Positions 36,584-63,555 of a DNA stretch of 64,000 nt are shown one piece after another; positions within the stretch are counted from its first letter, which is position 1; each line of letters starts with the position of its first letter. Source of the stretch: Anaerolineales bacterium (GTDB taxonomy: Bacteria > Chloroflexota > Anaerolineae > Anaerolineales > UBA6663); NCBI GenBank assembly GCA_020850595.1, contig JADZEK010000023.1, positions 6,222 to 70,221 on the forward strand, given 5' to 3'. Made by a program: the position numbers and the translations under genes. The notes beneath the pieces were generated by a model. The model was not told the origin of the DNA. It did no database searches and worked only from the letters and a program-made list of their open reading frames with translations.

Positions 36584-37489
36584 TTAGCGGTTCACGGCGC
36601 GGGCGATCAGGTCTTCGTAATAGATCGTTTCGCCGCCCGCCGTGCGGTCGTAGAGGTACAGACCGTAGAAGCCCTCGGTCAGGGCGCTATCGCGGGCGGT
36701 AAACAGGTATTGGTCGTTGGCGTAGAAGCGGAACTCGTCGCCGGCCATCCACACCAGCAGCGTGTTGTCGGCGGGCGCGCCGGGGTGCAGCGCGGGCGCG
36801 GCAGTCCAATCGGCCAGCACGGTGGTCTCGGCGCCACGGATGAGCAGGAAGCGCGCCTGCCCGCCACAGCGCACCGTGAACAGGTACAGGCTGTAGTTGA
36901 ACTCGGCGTCCACGCTGCCGCGGAACATCAGGCCGTACTCGTCGTTCTCGGCGCAGGCCCCGGTGTGCATGGTCACGCGCACCTGTTGGTCGCCCACCCG
37001 CAGCGTGTCGGGGCTGACGGTGAAGCGCCAGCCGTTGCCGGCCTTGAGCATGGTGCCTTTAAGCTGCTGGGTCTGCGCGTCAATACCGAACACCGCGGTG
37101 TCATCGGCGAAGGTCCAAAACCAGGTGCCGGTGCCGTCCAGAGGGTCTTGGTAGACGATGTCGCCGACGACCTCGTTCGGGTCAGGCGTGGCAGCGACCG
37201 GAGTACCGGTCGTAGGCGTGACGCTGGCCTCCACGCCGATGGGCGAGGGCGTGACGCTCGGCTCGCTGGTCGCGCTAGCGGCCACGGTGGCGCTGGCGGC
37301 GGGCGGCGCGGTCGGTAAAGGCGTGTTGGTAGTGCCGGCTTGCGCTAAGGCCGTGGCCGTCCCCGCGGCGGCATCGGCCAGGGCGGTGGCGGGCGACACG
37401 GTGGGAGCGGCGCTGGTGTCGCAGGCCAGGGCCAGCGCCAGCAGCGCGAGCCCAAAGACGAACAAGCGAAGGCGAGGCAAAGCGGTCAT
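36584..37489 (-). CDS. lipoprotein, function unknown
   Basis: MTALPRLRLFVFGLALLALALAC lipobox, a Thr/Pro/Ala-rich linker, then a beta-rich domain. The track ORF start at 37573 overlaps vapC. Confidence 0.7.
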   Translation of the reverse strand: MTALPRLRLFVFGLALLALALACDTSAAPTVSPATALADAAAGTATALAQAGTTNTPLPTAPPAASATVAASATSEPSVTPSPIGVEASVTPTTGTPVAATPDPNEVVGDIVYQDPLDGTGTWFWTFADDTAVFGIDAQTQQLKGTMLKAGNGWRFTVSPDTLRVGDQQVRVTMHTGACAENDEYGLMFRGSVDAEFNYSLYLFTVRCGGQARFLLIRGAETTVLADWTAAPALHPGAPADNTLLVWMAGDEFRFYANDQYLFTARDSALTEGFYGLYLYDRTAGGETIYYEDLIARAVNR

Positions 37490-37556
37490 GTGAGGCTCAA
37501 AGGGCAACGAGTGGGTGATCCGGCCCAGATGATAGCACAGGGCGGAGCGGGCGAAA

Positions 37557-37976
37557 TCACTTGGCCCAGTCAACCAGCTTTAGCTCAGCGAAATCGCGAT
37601 AGTCCGCGAGATTGAGGGTCACCAGGGCCAGTTCGTTGGTCACGGCCACGGCCGCGATTTGCGCGTCAACAAAGCCGGGGGGCTTGCCCAGGGTGGTCAG
37701 CCGCGCCCGTTCGCGGGCCTGCCACACGGCGGCCCGGTCATCATAGGGCAAGATGGGCATGGCCGCGCCAATCGCGGTCGTTAAATAGAAGTCGAGGGAA
37801 GCCCGCCTGGCTGAGAGGGGCAGGCGGTAACAGCCATACCAGAGCTCGTGCCAGGTGGGGGCGGCAATGGCCACTTCCGCTTCGTACTCCACCAGGCGCG
37901 CGACGAGTTTGGCGTTGGGCCGCGGGCGGCGCGGCTCGGAGACGACGTTGGTATCTAGCAGGAAGCGCAGGCTCAC
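37557..37976 (-). CDS. vapC: type II toxin VapC (PIN-domain ribonuclease)
   Basis: LLDTNV...E...VDAQIAA...TLN acidic PIN residues. 4-nt overlap with the upstream antitoxin gene. Confidence 0.9.
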   Translation of the reverse strand: MSLRFLLDTNVVSEPRRPRPNAKLVARLVEYEAEVAIAAPTWHELWYGCYRLPLSARRASLDFYLTTAIGAAMPILPYDDRAAVWQARERARLTTLGKPPGFVDAQIAAVAVTNELALVTLNLADYRDFAELKLVDWAK

Positions 37977-57958: not shown

Positions 57959-58555
57959 TCATGGCCGGCGCGGCGTCATGCTATACACCCCGGGGCGCGT
58001 CTTGGCTTGCTGGCGCGCGCCCCACTCGGCGCGCTGCCCCTCGATGTCGCGGCTTAGGGCCATCCAGTCGGCCACCACGAACTGCAAGCCCAAGAAGGTG
58101 CGCGGCAGCAGGTAGGCCATCAGAAAGAATCGCAGCCAGCGCACGTTGATCGGGTAGTGGTTGAGGTCCACCGCCAGTTGCGTGCGCCCGCGGAACGGAT
58201 CCACGATGCGGCCGTCGGCCCAGCCCACCTGCCCTGGGTCGAACGGAACCGGCCGCGTGGTGCGGATGCGGCTGTAGGCGATGCTTAGCCGGAAGAACGG
58301 CGTGCTCAGCAGCAGGTAGTTGGGGCGGGCCTGCACGTAAGCCTGCCGGGGCGCGAACACGGCGTAGATGTAGAGCAACAGCGCCAGCGCGGCCATGGCC
58401 GCCAGCGCCACGCGGATTTGCAGGGTATCCAGCGGCCCCGGCGCAAACAGCGATAGCCCGGCGGTCAGCAGCGTAAGCAGCAGAGCGGGGCCGCGCCACA
58501 GGGTGTACAGGCGCTCGTACAACAGCAGGCGGTGGGGGCGCGAAGGGGCGGGCAT
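57959..58555 (-). CDS. membrane protein (2 TM plus a PH-like soluble domain?), 198 aa
   Basis: I chose the internal ATG at 58555 (MPAPSRPHRLLLYERLY...). The upstream part of the track ORF looks non-coding. Confidence 0.55.
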   Translation of the reverse strand: MPAPSRPHRLLLYERLYTLWRGPALLLTLLTAGLSLFAPGPLDTLQIRVALAAMAALALLLYIYAVFAPRQAYVQARPNYLLLSTPFFRLSIAYSRIRTTRPVPFDPGQVGWADGRIVDPFRGRTQLAVDLNHYPINVRWLRFFLMAYLLPRTFLGLQFVVADWMALSRDIEGQRAEWGARQQAKTRPGVYSMTPRRP

Positions 58556-58809
58556 AGCGCGGCAGTATAGCACCGCCTGCCCAACGCCCTTGCTGGCCTC
58601 ATTCGCACGCCACGCCGGCGACGAGGCACGGATAGTTTCTTCGCCAGTTGACCTGCCTCTGCCCGCTGTTAGCCAGGCCTGGCGTTCCCCGCTCAGGCCT
58701 CTGGCCGTACATAGACTCTCCTCCCTGTGCGCTCCCGCCAGGGCTGGCGGGAGCACGATTCAGAGCACCCCAAAACGCCACGGATTTCCCGAAAAATCGG
58801 CGAGAGCAC

Positions 58810-58839
58810 TTGACATTAGTACGCTTGTTCTGGTACAGT
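58810..58839 (+). promoter_or_regulatory. candidate promoter
   Basis: TTGACA, 18-nt spacer, TACAGT. The -10 region is embedded in GTTCT-n8-AGAAC. Confidence 0.45.
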
Positions 58840-58923
58840 AGAACAGAAATTCTAATTCTGCCGGCGCGCCTTTGCCGCACCTAGATTGTGCCCGGAACAT
58901 CGCCGATCACAGGAGCCACCGCT

Positions 58924-59301
58924 ATGTCTGGTCACGCCATCGTCCACGTCGAGGTTCCGTCGGTAGACCCAGCGGCGGCCGCCAAGTTCTATAGCGACCT
59001 GTTCGGCTGGAAGCTGAACCCTTGGCCGGAGTTCAACGACTTCACCTTCGACACCGGCGGCGGCCTGCCTGTCATCGAGCCGGAGAAAGGCGTCACAGCC
59101 GGCGAAGTGCTGGTCTACGTCAACACCAACGACCTGGACGCCTCGCTGGCGCGCGTGCGTGAATTGGGCGGCCGGGTAGACGGCCCCCAGGTGGAAGTGT
59201 CTGGAATGCGGTGGGCCTTCTTTAATGACCCCAGCGGCAATCGCGTGGGCCTGTACACCGGCGCGCCCGCCGCCCAACAGCCAAGCCCGGCGAGCGCCTA
59301 G
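58924..59301 (+). CDS. VOC (glyoxalase/bleomycin-resistance) family protein
   Basis: HVEVPS.D...A.KFY..LFGW......F.DP.GN..GL. Confidence 0.8.
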   Translation: MSGHAIVHVEVPSVDPAAAAKFYSDLFGWKLNPWPEFNDFTFDTGGGLPVIEPEKGVTAGEVLVYVNTNDLDASLARVRELGGRVDGPQVEVSGMRWAFFNDPSGNRVGLYTGAPAAQQPSPASA

Positions 59302-59328: not shown

Positions 59329-60339
59329 ATGGGTAAGCCCTCGCCCGACATGATGAACTTTCAGGCCGACCGCATCGAGCGGGTGCTGGCCTCGCATCGC
59401 GTGCCGGTGCGCGTTCACGGCGGCGCCATCTTGCCGCGCTGGATTCGATTCCTGCTCACCCCGGCCATGGGGGCCAAGGTGTCCGCCGTGCGCAGCCTGT
59501 CCGAAGAATTGGCGCTGGCCCTGGGCGCGCCGGACGTGCGCGTGGCGCGCGACGGCGAATCTATCACGGTCGAGGTGCCGCGCGACGACGCCGAGCCGGT
59601 GCTGCTTTCCAATTTGCTGCGCGCGGCGCCGAACTGTCCACCGGTCACTGCCAGCCTGGGCCTCACCGACGACGGCCGCCCGCTGCTGCTGCGGCTGCCC
59701 TCGCCCGACGTGGCGCACGTGCTCATCGCCGGGGCCACCGGCTCGGGCAAAACCGAGTTGATGCGCAGCCTGGTGGTCTCGCTGGCGCGGCGCAACCGGC
59801 AAAGCAAATTGCAGTTCGCGCTGATTGACCCCAAGCGCCGGGGCTTTCTGCCGCTGGGCGGCCTGCCGCACCTGCTGGCCGATATCGCCGCCGACCCCGC
59901 CGCCGCGCTGCACCTGCTGGAGCGCCTGCTGGTCGAGATGGAGCGCCGCGACCGCGAGCAGGTCTCCTCGCCGCGCATCGTCATCGTGATTGATGAGCTG
60001 CTCGACCTGCTGGCGACCGGCGGCAAGCCGGTGGAGCTGGCGCTGACGCGCCTGGCCCAGCGCGGGCGCGAGGCCGGGCTGCATGTGGTGGCCGGGGCGC
60101 AGAAGCCCGCCGCCACTGTGCTCGGCCCGATGCTCAAGGCCAACTTCCCGGTGCGCCTCATCGGCCGGGTGGGCAGCGCGGAAGATGCGCGCGTGGCCGC
60201 GGGCCTGCCCGGCACCAACGCCGAGCGGCTGTTGGGCCGCGGCGATTTTTTGCTGGTGGCGGCCGGGCACACGGTGCGCTTTCAGGCGGCCTGGATCCCG
60301 GCCGCGGAGTGGCCCGGCTTGCTGGCCGGGCTGAGTTAG
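59329..60339 (+). CDS. FtsK/SpoIIIE-family motor-domain ATPase, soluble; no TM, linker or gamma domain
   Basis: 336 aa. The alpha-domain-like N-terminus (ILPRWIRFLLTPAMGAKVS.V..L.EELALAL) is followed by Walker A HVLIAGATGSGKTE, Walker B IVIVIDELLDLL, and QKP...L....KANFP.RL.GRV.S..D.R (FtsK beta domain). Confidence 0.85.
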   Translation: MGKPSPDMMNFQADRIERVLASHRVPVRVHGGAILPRWIRFLLTPAMGAKVSAVRSLSEELALALGAPDVRVARDGESITVEVPRDDAEPVLLSNLLRAAPNCPPVTASLGLTDDGRPLLLRLPSPDVAHVLIAGATGSGKTELMRSLVVSLARRNRQSKLQFALIDPKRRGFLPLGGLPHLLADIAADPAAALHLLERLLVEMERRDREQVSSPRIVIVIDELLDLLATGGKPVELALTRLAQRGREAGLHVVAGAQKPAATVLGPMLKANFPVRLIGRVGSAEDARVAAGLPGTNAERLLGRGDFLLVAAGHTVRFQAAWIPAAEWPGLLAGLS

Positions 60340-60370
60340 TTACGACCAAGTGAGTCAGGAGCGAACGGCC

Positions 60371-60646
60371 ATGGATATCGGCATGTTGTGGTATGACGAC
60401 GATGCGAAGCGCAAGCTCGACGAGAAGGTGGCCCGCGCGGTGGAGTTTTACCGGGCCAAGTACGGCGTGCAGCCCACGGAGTGCTACGTGCACCCCGGTA
60501 TGCTGGCCGCCGATCAGCCGACCACCGCGGCCGGCGTGCGGCTGCGGCCCAACCGCACCATCATCAAGAACCACTTCTGGCTGGGCGTGGCCCAGACCGA
60601 GACTCCCCCGGCCCTCGCCGCCGCGAAACGGCGCGGCCGGGCCTAG
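60371..60646 (+). CDS. hypothetical protein (91 aa)
   Basis: AGGAG lies 9 nt before ATG 60371 (the track start GTG 60350 is less likely). No family recognised. Confidence 0.6.
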   Translation: MDIGMLWYDDDAKRKLDEKVARAVEFYRAKYGVQPTECYVHPGMLAADQPTTAAGVRLRPNRTIIKNHFWLGVAQTETPPALAAAKRRGRA

Positions 60647-60670
60647 CGCCGCCGTGAAAGCGAGGCAGCT

Positions 60671-61138
60671 ATGCGCGGCCGCACCCTCCTCATTTGGGTT
60701 CTAGGACTGGCCTTTGCCGTCACGCTGGCGGTGGTCGTCGGCCAGCGCCTCTCGGCGCAGGCCATGGCCATCGTCATCGGCATCATCGCCGGGGTGGCGG
60801 CCAGCATCCCCACCAGCCTGCTGGTGGTGTGGGCCACGGCCCGCCTCAGCCTGCCGCGCGCGGGCTACGCCGTGCCGCGGCCCGCGCCACGCGAGCGCCC
60901 CATTGTGGTCATGCAGGCGCCGCCCGCTCCGGCCTATAGCCCGCCGAGCGGCTACGCGCCCAATGGCGAAGCCGGCGCGCCGGGAGTCTCCGCCGGCGGG
61001 GGCTACGCTCCGGCGGGCTATGCCCAGGCCGGCTATGGCCCGCTGCCGCCGCGGCGCTTCACGGTGGTAGGCGGCGGACGCGTGCTAGACGCCGACGAGA
61101 TTGAAGCGCAGGAGGAGGACGAGGCATGGATGCCCTAA
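60671..61138 (+). CDS. membrane protein with 2 TM helices and a Pro/Gly/Tyr/Ala-rich tail (155 aa)
   Basis: GCGAGG SD. N-terminal TM pair, then a low-complexity PAPAYSPPSGYAPNGEAGAPGVSAGGGYAPAGYAQAGYGP region and an acidic C-terminus. Confidence 0.65.
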   Translation: MRGRTLLIWVLGLAFAVTLAVVVGQRLSAQAMAIVIGIIAGVAASIPTSLLVVWATARLSLPRAGYAVPRPAPRERPIVVMQAPPAPAYSPPSGYAPNGEAGAPGVSAGGGYAPAGYAQAGYGPLPPRRFTVVGGGRVLDADEIEAQEEDEAWMP

Positions 61139-61425
61139 AGCCGGGTGGCCCCCAGGCCGCCCGCCGCCGCGGCCCCAGCCGCATAGATGAGCCGGTGGCC
61201 GTGCCTACCCTGCGCCACGGGTTCTTCCCGGCGGCGTTCGTGTGGCGCGGGCGGCGGCATGCCGTGAGCGCCGTGGAAGATTGCCGCACCGAAGTCCACC
61301 ACAATTGGCGCGGCGCGGCCGAGCGCCACCACTTTCGCGTGCGCGCCGAAGGCGCGGTGTACGAGTTGACGCAGGACCTGGCGCGCGACGTTTGGCAGTT
61401 GGAGCGCATGTGGGAGCTGAACTGA
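61126..61425 (+). CDS. hypothetical small beta-rich protein (99 aa)
   Basis: GAGGAGGA SD. 13-nt overlap with the previous gene. FVWRGRRHAVSAVEDC...HHFRVRAEGAVYELTQD...WQLERMWE pattern. Confidence 0.6.
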   Translation: MDALKPGGPQAARRRGPSRIDEPVAVPTLRHGFFPAAFVWRGRRHAVSAVEDCRTEVHHNWRGAAERHHFRVRAEGAVYELTQDLARDVWQLERMWELN

Positions 61426-62499: not shown

Positions 62500-63555
62500 T
62501 CAGGCCGTCGTCAGCGACGCCACCAGGGTGTCCAGCGCGGCCGCGGCCTCCAGCTGCCCTGTTTTAATCCCGGTGTCGTAATCAAGCAAGCGGCGGTAAA
62601 TGCCCTCTAGCTGCGGCAGCGAGAAGTTGCGGGCTTGGGCGCAGAGCTTGCCGGTCGGATACGGCTTCAGCCCCAGGGCGGCAGCCACTTCATGCTCACC
62701 GGCGCGCCCGTCGAGCAACTCGCGCGCCTGGAGGATCAGCCGGTATTGCCGGATGATCATGGTCAGCACGTAGAACGGGTCTTGGGTGGCGAGCAGCTTG
62801 TGCAGTTCGCGCATGGCCTGTGGGCCGCGCCGCTGGCCCATGGCGTCTACCAGATCGAAGATCACCGCCTCGCCGCCGGCGGGCGTGAGGGTCTGCACGT
62901 CGTCTAGCTCCACGGCGCGAGCGAAGTTCACATAGGTGAGCAGCTTGGCGATCTCCTGCTCCAGCGCGCGCGGGTCGTTCTCCACCTCGCCCAGCGCCTC
63001 GGCCGCCGCGTGGCTGAACTCGCCGCCGGCAGTCTTGGCCCGGCTGCGAATCCAGCGCGTCAGCTCTTCGCCTTTCTTCAGATCAAAGTGCCGCACCAGC
63101 GCCCACTCGGCGCCGGTGGCCGCCTTGAGCACCACGTTCTTGACCGGCAGGTCGCGCTGCTCCATCAGCACCAGCTTGGTGCTGGGCGGCAGTTGCGGCA
63201 GGTAGGCGGCCAGGGCGGCCATCGTTTCCTTGGGGCCGAGGCCGCCGGCGGCCGTGCTCAGCGTCTCGGGCGCTTCGTCCCCGTCTGCGGCGGCGTCGCC
63301 GGCGACCGCCTCCACCCGGCTGAGCAGGCGGGTGAGCCAACCTTCAATCAGCACCAAGCGGTAGTCGGACAGGAAGGGCAGCGTGTCACACGCGGCGCGC
63401 ACCTCGGCCAGCGTCAGCCCGCCGCCGCCGCCGTTGAGCACGGTGGTGTTGAGCGCGGCGTAGGCCGGGTCGCCCATCTTCGCCCGCAAACCCTCCATGA
63501 ATTCGGCCTGGCCGAACTCGTTGGGGCCGTGGAGCAGGTAGAAGCTGGGCGGCAT
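62500..63555 (-). CDS. holA: DNA polymerase III subunit delta
   Basis: 351 aa. FYLLHGPNEF N-terminus and the typical delta-subunit layout. Confidence 0.8.
   Translation of the reverse strand: MPPSFYLLHGPNEFGQAEFMEGLRAKMGDPAYAALNTTVLNGGGGGLTLAEVRAACDTLPFLSDYRLVLIEGWLTRLLSRVEAVAGDAAADGDEAPETLSTAAGGLGPKETMAALAAYLPQLPPSTKLVLMEQRDLPVKNVVLKAATGAEWALVRHFDLKKGEELTRWIRSRAKTAGGEFSHAAAEALGEVENDPRALEQEIAKLLTYVNFARAVELDDVQTLTPAGGEAVIFDLVDAMGQRRGPQAMRELHKLLATQDPFYVLTMIIRQYRLILQARELLDGRAGEHEVAAALGLKPYPTGKLCAQARNFSLPQLEGIYRRLLDYDTGIKTGQLEAAAALDTLVASLTTA

Follow-up and report, generated by a model that had tools for sequence, protein, structure and literature searches.

A five-gene operon with a module conserved in the Anaerolineae, predicted to be under LexA control, encodes an FtsK-type motor core, a membrane protein and a stand-alone ImuB-C domain

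Gene content and organization of the locus

The window analysed here is a 64-kb stretch of DNA from an uncultured Anaerolineales bacterium (Chloroflexota), a metagenome-assembled genome (MAG) with a bin contamination of 9.6%. It contains a run of four co-directional genes, headed by a gene for an FtsK-type motor core, which an earlier note on the sequence had singled out as a module and which we interpret here as part of an operon of the SOS response. The listing of open reading frames (ORFs) in the window confirmed the four genes, together with the lengths and the 13-nt overlap originally given for them. A gene of the VOC family precedes them on the same strand:

58924-59301, plus strand: leading gene of the operon, VOC / glyoxalase / bleomycin-resistance family (Pfam Glyoxalase, E 1.8e-11)
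59329-60339, plus strand: gene 1, 336 aa, an FtsK alpha/beta motor core that lacks a transmembrane (TM) segment, a linker and a gamma domain
60371-60646, plus strand: gene 2, 91 aa, unnamed Chloroflexota family, with a basic C-terminal tail in the lineage of the window
60671-61138, plus strand: gene 3, 155 aa, with a pair of TM helices, a linker rich in Pro, a conserved P..R.F.V[IV]G motif and acidic residues at its end
61126-61425, plus strand: gene 4, 99 aa, all-beta, an ImuB-C domain (Pfam DUF6504) that stands alone

Other than the overlap between genes 3 and 4, the intergenic gaps measure 24-31 nt, and a scan of the window found no credible terminator within the gene run. The VOC ORF opens at a GTG (58888) and has its probable start at the ATG at 58924, which is preceded by AGGAG; an ortholog occupies the same position in G003 (L023). 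Since the promoter described below first drives the VOC gene, which ends 27 nt before gene 1, the operon comprises five genes, with VOC in the lead and genes 1-4 after it. The mechanical ORF of gene 2 (60350-60646) likewise opens at a GTG, at 60350, and the conserved start is the ATG at 60371, again preceded by AGGAG; this start yields the 91 aa of the soluble protein anticipated from the sequence, which we describe as cytoplasmic. The Shine-Dalgarno site of gene 1 is weak.

A neighbourhood analysis, which had been proposed as a check on the module, found all four genes together at ~22 distinct loci across the class, and genes 1, 3 and 4 at five more. Their order is 1, 2, 3, 4 in the window's own family and 1, 3, 4, 2 across many other families of the class. 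Among the related loci, genes 1, 3 and 4 travel together, and gene 2 is the sole component kept in every variant. These comparisons indicate that the four-gene module is real and conserved across filamentous Anaerolineae. The earlier note had also placed it close to the replication origin, and dnaA does lie 4.7 kb upstream, but among the related loci compared this proximity is present only at the locus of the window and is not conserved in other lineages, so that it appears to be incidental. Our literature search found no paper describing the module, none relevantly linking LexA, FtsK and Chloroflexi, and none on FtsZ-less division in Anaerolineae.

Predicted LexA operators and SOS control of the operon

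Upstream of the VOC gene lies the sole sigma-70-like site found between positions 58500 and 61700, overlapped and followed by two sequences resembling LexA operators:

58810-58839, plus strand: sigma-70-type promoter, TTGACA-18-TACAGT with a TG extension
58819-58830, no strand assigned: predicted LexA operator 1, Cheo-type, GTACGCTTGTTC, with one mismatch to GAAC-N4-GTTC, in the promoter spacer
58841-58852, no strand assigned: predicted LexA operator 2, GAACAGAAATTC, with one mismatch, directly 3' of the -10 hexamer

The two operators represent two of just 15 one-mismatch matches in the whole window. Boxes of the same type precede several genes elsewhere in the source genome: lexA (contig C133) carries GAACGTCCGTTC just upstream, the second recA gene (recA2) has a TTGACA...TATACT promoter with AGTACACTTGTTCG after the -10, imuB has AAACATTTGTTC upstream, which is a one-mismatch LexA box, and the tag glycosylase gene is preceded by a perfect box. 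Judging from these boxes at its own lexA, recA2, imuB and tag genes, LexA in this organism appears to use the Gram-positive Cheo box, and the GTAC variant seen in operator 1 recurs at the recA2 promoter. Perfect GAAC-N4-GTTC sites number 36 in the genome; they lie mostly within genes, and most are probably due to chance.

Alignment of orthologous promoters revealed a shared layout, consisting of the -35 element, box 1 in the spacer, the -10 element and box 2, with perfect boxes at the positions orthologous to operator 1 in four loci (L024, L025, L038, L052). A box pair is present within 1.3 kb upstream of the module at 20 of the 25 module loci, compared with 15 of 538 control windows, and in at least eight lineages (L043, L044, L045, L050, L053, L054, L061, L062) lexA itself lies directly upstream of gene 1; the operon of the window is a VOC-led variant without linkage to lexA. 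Owing to this phylogenetic footprinting of promoter layout, box pairs and lexA linkage, LexA/SOS control of the operon is well supported at the level of sequence, and the operon is very probably switched on by DNA damage. Copies of gene 2 in an SOS context, that is, outside the division and cell wall (dcw) cluster, sit behind a LexA box even when they stand alone.

SOS control of an FtsK-type translocase has a counterpart in E. coli, in which ftsK is transcribed from the LexA-controlled dinH promoter. The E. coli protein is a single full-length, membrane-anchored FtsK with a gamma domain, whereas the window encodes an extra, alpha/beta-only paralog, predicted to be co-transcribed with the genes for a membrane protein, an ImuB-C domain and gene 2, and the two housekeeping ftsK genes of its genome, unlike ftsK of E. 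coli, have no LexA box.

A TGTTC-N10-GAACA palindrome in the promoter was considered as a separate operator and rejected; it occurs only three times in the genome, and the inward-facing halves of the two LexA boxes explain it better. At four loci (L049, L051, L055, L106) a Cys-rich protein of 140-200 aa (C.HRSV..DGR[IV].C ... C..CP ... C.HLRF) is encoded between lexA and the gene 1 ortholog. This protein has no Pfam match and is absent from the source genome.

Gene 1 encodes an FtsK alpha/beta core without a gamma domain

In the Pfam scan, gene 1 matches FtsK_SpoIIIE (E 1.4e-30) as well as FtsK_alpha (E 1.7e-10), and nothing along its 336 aa corresponds to a gamma domain or a TM segment; it also aligns to PDB entry 2IUU, the alpha/beta crystal construct of Pseudomonas aeruginosa FtsK (PaFtsK), with an E-value of 7e-40. 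Both Walker motifs, A (GATGSGKT) and B (VIVIDE), occur in the protein and are invariant across 22 orthologs, so that Pfam and the ortholog alignment agree with the initial description of a motor-only FtsK core with intact Walker motifs and no anchor, linker or gamma domain. The alignment to 2IUU was used to map gene 1 residues onto the cryo-electron microscopy description of translocating FtsK (PMC7321959):

PaFtsK R620, arginine finger: R247 in gene 1, kept
PaFtsK R632, pore loop II: K259 in gene 1, still basic (Lys for Arg)
PaFtsK K643, pore loop II: K270 in gene 1, kept
PaFtsK R661, pore loop I: R288 in gene 1, kept
PaFtsK K657, pore loop I: A284 in gene 1, lost

The arginine finger and the basic pore residues that gene 1 keeps are conserved in the alignment of 22 orthologs. 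Given this conservation, and that of the Walker motifs, gene 1 may be a competent, though altered, double-stranded-DNA motor. The possibility that it is merely a fragment of a split or truncated ftsK, for which a search for full-length FtsK elsewhere in the genome had been suggested, is ruled out by the presence of two full-length FtsK frames, of 824 and 898 aa, whose ends are of the membrane and gamma type; two further FtsK-like genes exist besides this pair.

Extra FtsK-family motors that clear chromosomes from the septum are found in B. subtilis as SftA and SpoIIIE, and gene 1 resembles them in being an additional motor of this family. Both of those proteins keep the gamma domain, which gene 1 lacks, SpoIIIE has TM segments of its own, and neither is known to be encoded in a LexA operon with partners such as those found here. 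In many gene 1 orthologs outside the window's family, the C-terminus is extended by 40-60 aa and finishes with a conserved R-x-[VL]-K; the gene 1 of the window has no such extension.

The combination of a small FtsK-like motor with small membrane or uncharacterised proteins had led the earlier note to compare the module with actinomycete TraB/Spd systems; in Streptomyces these likewise pair a small hexameric pump, similar to FtsK, with membrane proteins of small size. Under this explanation the module would be a TraB/Spd-like, or mobile-element-derived, pump for the transfer of double-stranded DNA, perhaps between the cells of a filament after damage. A weak match to a TraB model (E 6e-6) and the occurrence of a few gene 2 relatives on IMG/VR viral contigs are in keeping with it, but the score with the NCBIfam TraB model (NF041214) is 25 bits, where the cutoff is 800, and no winged helix-turn-helix or clt-reading domain, integrase or relaxase accompanies gene 1. 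Gene 2 has no match in GenBank phages or PLSDB plasmids, and its three IMG/VR viral-contig matches are all without an ATPase and without boxes. The module is not plasmid-borne; it occupies a single chromosomal locus with holA synteny conserved across the class (see below) and is predicted to be LexA-controlled. The locus thus appears to be chromosomal and not mobile, the TraB/Spd likeness did not stand up to these comparisons, and we consider a transfer pump of this type very unlikely.

The second likeness raised at the outset, to FtsK/HerA-type phage-defence or packaging modules, fared no better. Gene 1 does match PADLOC models for SspH (E 1.8e-33) and mad8 (E 2.8e-25), and the NCBIfam models for EccC and EssC, which could point to anti-phage defence of the Ssp/Dnd, HerA or mads type, or to a type VII-like secretion ATPase with small substrates. 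All of these matches fall on the FtsK ATPase domain, which the models share with gene 1 as one part of much larger proteins, and they lie far below the cutoffs; the SspH profiles, for example, are 1,561-1,766 positions long, and only their C-terminal ATPase part is matched. No partner genes of those systems are present, and the module's own partner genes have no PADLOC matches. Gene 1 has a single ATPase domain, in contrast to the multi-ATPase EccC, and the model of gene 2 has a beta-alpha-beta-beta-beta arrangement in place of the WXG100 hairpin expected of a type VII substrate. Predicted LexA control and class-wide vertical conservation are also unlike a defence island, leaving defence or secretion as the least probable of the explanations considered.

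Gene 4 is a stand-alone DUF6504 domain, equated here with ImuB-C

With 34.2 bits, gene 4 lies above the Pfam cutoff for DUF6504, which is 24.2. Its AlphaFold2 (AF2) model is a six-stranded all-beta domain with a predicted local distance difference test (pLDDT) score of 89, in agreement with the beta-rich character first ascribed to it, and W90, in the place of the conserved C-terminal Trp expected of this beta-rich domain of ~80 aa, is invariant among its orthologs. The three partners of gene 1 had been considered unassignable to any family; this no longer applies to gene 4, and holds for gene 2, which has no match in Pfam, NCBIfam, PHROGs or PADLOC, and for gene 3, which has no usable match in the same four databases. 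A Foldseek search with the gene 4 model returned no significant PDB neighbour, and a profile search of PDB sequences found nothing.

DUF6504 also matches the C-terminus of a 507-aa frame in the same genome, which we read as ImuB from this C-terminus and not from the N-terminal Y-family polymerase domain, and a profile of 27 gene 4 orthologs aligns to the same region (hhalign E 2.4e-6). The ImuB-C domain, as defined by Aravind et al. (2013; PMC3765255) and by Timinskas and Venclovas (2019; PMC6511836), is rich in beta structure, with a C-terminal Trp that is conserved, and occurs stand-alone in SOS operons with DinB, DnaE2, LexA, SRAP or Ku. From these shared features we infer that DUF6504 is the ImuB-C domain, although none of the sources consulted states the equivalence, and no paper mentioning DUF6504 was found in the literature search.

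When ImuB-C stands alone, the known cases are almost all encoded in SOS polymerase/repair operons, often with lexA, as in Geobacter's lexA-imuB-C-polY operon and the iPolY-ImuB-C-DnaE2 variants (PMC3765255, PMC6511836). Gene 4 sits in a comparable SOS context, with LexA-type boxes or lexA itself upstream of the module, and the likeness consists in a stand-alone ImuB-C/DUF6504 domain in a LexA-led operon that would be controlled by LexA boxes. In contrast to those operons, the module of the window has no Y-family or DnaE2 polymerase, Ku, ligase or SRAP, and the partners of its ImuB-C domain are an FtsK-like ATPase and a membrane protein. The term FtsK is absent from PMC3765255, the defining ImuB-C paper and the only one in which it was looked for.

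The known associations of stand-alone ImuB-C, the homology of gene 4 to the ImuB C-terminus of its own genome and the predicted LexA control of the operon would all suit an accessory role in translesion synthesis or mutagenesis, with gene 1 as an ImuA-like RecA-fold ATPase and gene 4 recruiting DnaE2 or DinB, as in split ImuA-ImuB-DnaE2 variants. Such a role appears improbable, for no polymerase gene is present in or beside the module at any locus examined, and the genome has, at another site, an apparently complete imuB that is preceded by a box of its own. Gene 1, moreover, is a true FtsK alpha/beta core with pore residues and not of the RecA/ImuA type, and a mutasome would not be expected to need a membrane partner.

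Gene 3 is a candidate membrane anchor

In an alignment of 20 gene 3 orthologs, two hydrophobic helices are conserved, the Pro-rich linker after them is variable, and the C-terminal part has a conserved P..R.F.V[IV]G (R-x-F-x-V-I-G) motif with acidic residues behind it. In the window the tail C-terminal to the two helices is Pro/Gly/Tyr-rich, and the alignment therefore agrees with the two TM helices and Pro/Gly/Tyr-rich tail described from the single sequence. By the positive-inside rule this tail should be cytoplasmic. Among the related loci, gene 3 is found only where gene 4 and the well-conserved form of gene 1 are both present. Because of this strict co-occurrence with the well-conserved gene 1, the suggestion made in the earlier note, that the membrane partner supplies in trans the anchor which the motor lacks, remains plausible.

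Gene 2 belongs to a large family with a paralog in the dcw cluster

The core of gene 2 reads MLW[YF]D[DN]D ... KYG ... C ... NHFWLG, and the invariant residues are W7, D9, D11, K30, Y31, P35, C38, P42, H68, W70 and G72. Its AF2 model (pLDDT 80.6) gave nothing below E 0.1 in a Foldseek search of the PDB and a single match in BFVD, to an unnamed viral protein of 146 aa (E 7.5e-4). A profile search of 1.84 billion representatives (clusters at 50% identity) retrieved 2,335 clusters at E <= 1e-3, indicating that gene 2 is a member of a large unnamed family, all of whose named members come from Anaerolineae or Chloroflexota MAGs. Some of the relatives P0205, P0261 and P0267 bear a histone-H1-like Lys/Ala-rich tail, and others among them, of 376-421 aa, have a second, diverged gene 2-like segment at the C-terminus; the long relatives (126-421 aa) have no Pfam domains. 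These tails and long extensions hint at an association with DNA.

Gene 2 occurs in four settings, namely in the module, directly after a diverged or decayed FtsK-like P-loop protein, alone, and between mraY and murD. The last of these is represented in the source genome by a second copy, 56% identical to gene 2 (contig C162:12730-13068; L022 5731-6069, minus strand), which begins 15 nt after mraY and lies just before murD within a ftsI-murF-mraY-X-murD-ftsW-murG cluster. The position is filled in at least three lineages; G003, G034, G038 and several Anaerolineales MAGs have a copy there. The dcw copies have no LexA boxes. In a phylogenetic tree, dcw and module copies of the window's family form sister groups (support 91/88); the remaining dcw copies branch at other places, with poor resolution.

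A gene kept in every variant, placed behind LexA boxes even when alone and possessing a box-less paralog between mraY and murD, could encode a division inhibitor, and a pure SOS checkpoint on cell division is the main rival to the interpretation developed below. Gene 2 or gene 3 would then be the counterpart of SulA, YneA, ChiZ, DivS or SidA, acting on the dcw machinery, with the ATPase as an accessory or target. SOS division inhibitors of Gram-positive bacteria classically adjoin lexA, and the same arrangement is seen in the many lineages in which lexA heads the operon; YneA, ChiZ, DivS and SosA are small (membrane) proteins encoded beside lexA and induced by damage, and gene 3 is likewise a small membrane protein. 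Unlike these inhibitors, neither gene 2 nor gene 3 has a LysM domain, and searches of Pfam, NCBIfam, PHROGs and PADLOC showed no resemblance to them in sequence or family, nor a match to any SulA-fold family; gene 3 has two TM helices and a probably cytoplasmic tail, and gene 2 is soluble, with no fold match to known inhibitors. Gene 3 also accompanies only the intact motor and not every SOS copy of gene 2, and the histone-H1-like tails of some gene 2 relatives point to DNA and not to the divisome. Taken together, we regard a checkpoint of this kind as possible but rather unlikely.

Proposed role of the module

The mutasome, TraB/Spd, defence and type VII readings fail on the specific tests described above. 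In our preferred interpretation, to which we assign a probability of roughly 55%, the locus is a LexA-repressed five-gene SOS operon encoding a damage-induced, membrane-tethered module that handles DNA and couples its state to division. The biochemical role set out here is inferred. DNA damage would lead to RecA-stimulated cleavage of LexA and hence to transcription of the operon. Gene 1 would assemble into an FtsK-type hexameric ring on double-stranded DNA, presumably unable to read KOPS or to activate XerCD since it has no gamma domain. As gene 1 has no anchor of its own, gene 3 may hold it at the membrane or septum through the cytoplasmic Pro-rich linker and the R-x-F-x-V-I-G motif, which would serve for docking. 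Gene 4 could act as a non-catalytic ImuB-C adaptor that contacts either damaged DNA or a partner in repair or in the replisome. Gene 2 would be the class-wide core SOS effector, and its constitutive paralog inside the mraY-murD operon suggests that it probably connects the response with division or with motors of the FtsK type. Overall, the module would prevent septa from trapping or cutting chromosomes that are damaged or unsegregated in these filamentous bacteria.

Several observations weigh against this interpretation. Both operators in the window carry a mismatch, the topology of gene 3 is a prediction only, and genes 2 and 4 have no informative structural neighbours. The position of K657 is occupied by Ala or Pro in the gene 1 family and that of Arg632 by Lys, so that translocase activity is not assured. 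Furthermore, the ATPase beside gene 2 is clearly decayed in other lineages, which shows that gene 2 can fulfil its role without the motor.

A bolder version of the proposed role, which we consider a long shot, has the gene 3-anchored, gamma-less motor pumping double-stranded chromosomal DNA across septa between the cells of a filament after damage, in a TraB-like manner, and thereby providing intact templates for recombinational repair, with gene 4 selecting damaged DNA and gene 2 gating the housekeeping divisome or FtsK.

To our knowledge, the Chloroflexota have seen little work on their SOS response, and we know of no division-checkpoint effector in this phylum. The operon would place a dedicated FtsK-type motor under LexA control, together with a membrane partner, an ImuB-C adaptor and gene 2. 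If the proposed role is correct, it would reveal how chromosome integrity and septation are coupled in filamentous monoderm bacteria, provide ImuB-C with a partner that is not part of translesion synthesis, and give two new protein families a name.

Chromosomal setting and other genes behind LexA-type boxes

The operon faces a conserved convergent neighbour, which lies outside it:

62500-63555, minus strand: holA, DNA polymerase III delta subunit

A convergent holA is present within 3 kb downstream of gene 2 at 35 of the 64 non-dcw loci, often less than 100 bp away, and this conserved synteny makes lexA > ATPase ... gene 2 > < holA look like the ancestral arrangement. SOS-driven read-through could collide with holA transcription. 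On the other side, divergent from the SOS promoter region, the window encodes a membrane protein without a family match (57959-58756, minus strand, with a probable start near 58570), and the distant locus L106 has a homolog of this protein immediately upstream of its module.

The genome has two recA genes, on contigs C34 and C105. The C105 copy has a long basic N-terminal extension and a consensus promoter with LexA-like boxes; the C34 copy shows none. Within the dcw cluster, a perfect LexA-type box, GAACGCATGTTC (C162:19229-19240), abuts the ATG of mraZ, the first dcw gene, and may be due to chance. Another perfect box (C105:77798) precedes a gene (C105:77940-78686) for a protein with an FHA domain, a Pro-rich region and a C-terminal membrane segment, which is a candidate for another SOS membrane effector. 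A further perfect box (C155:37388) precedes a second VOC-superfamily gene (37460-37966; PhnB-like, PF06983), and with two such genes behind LexA-type boxes, VOC proteins seem to be recurrent SOS genes in this organism.

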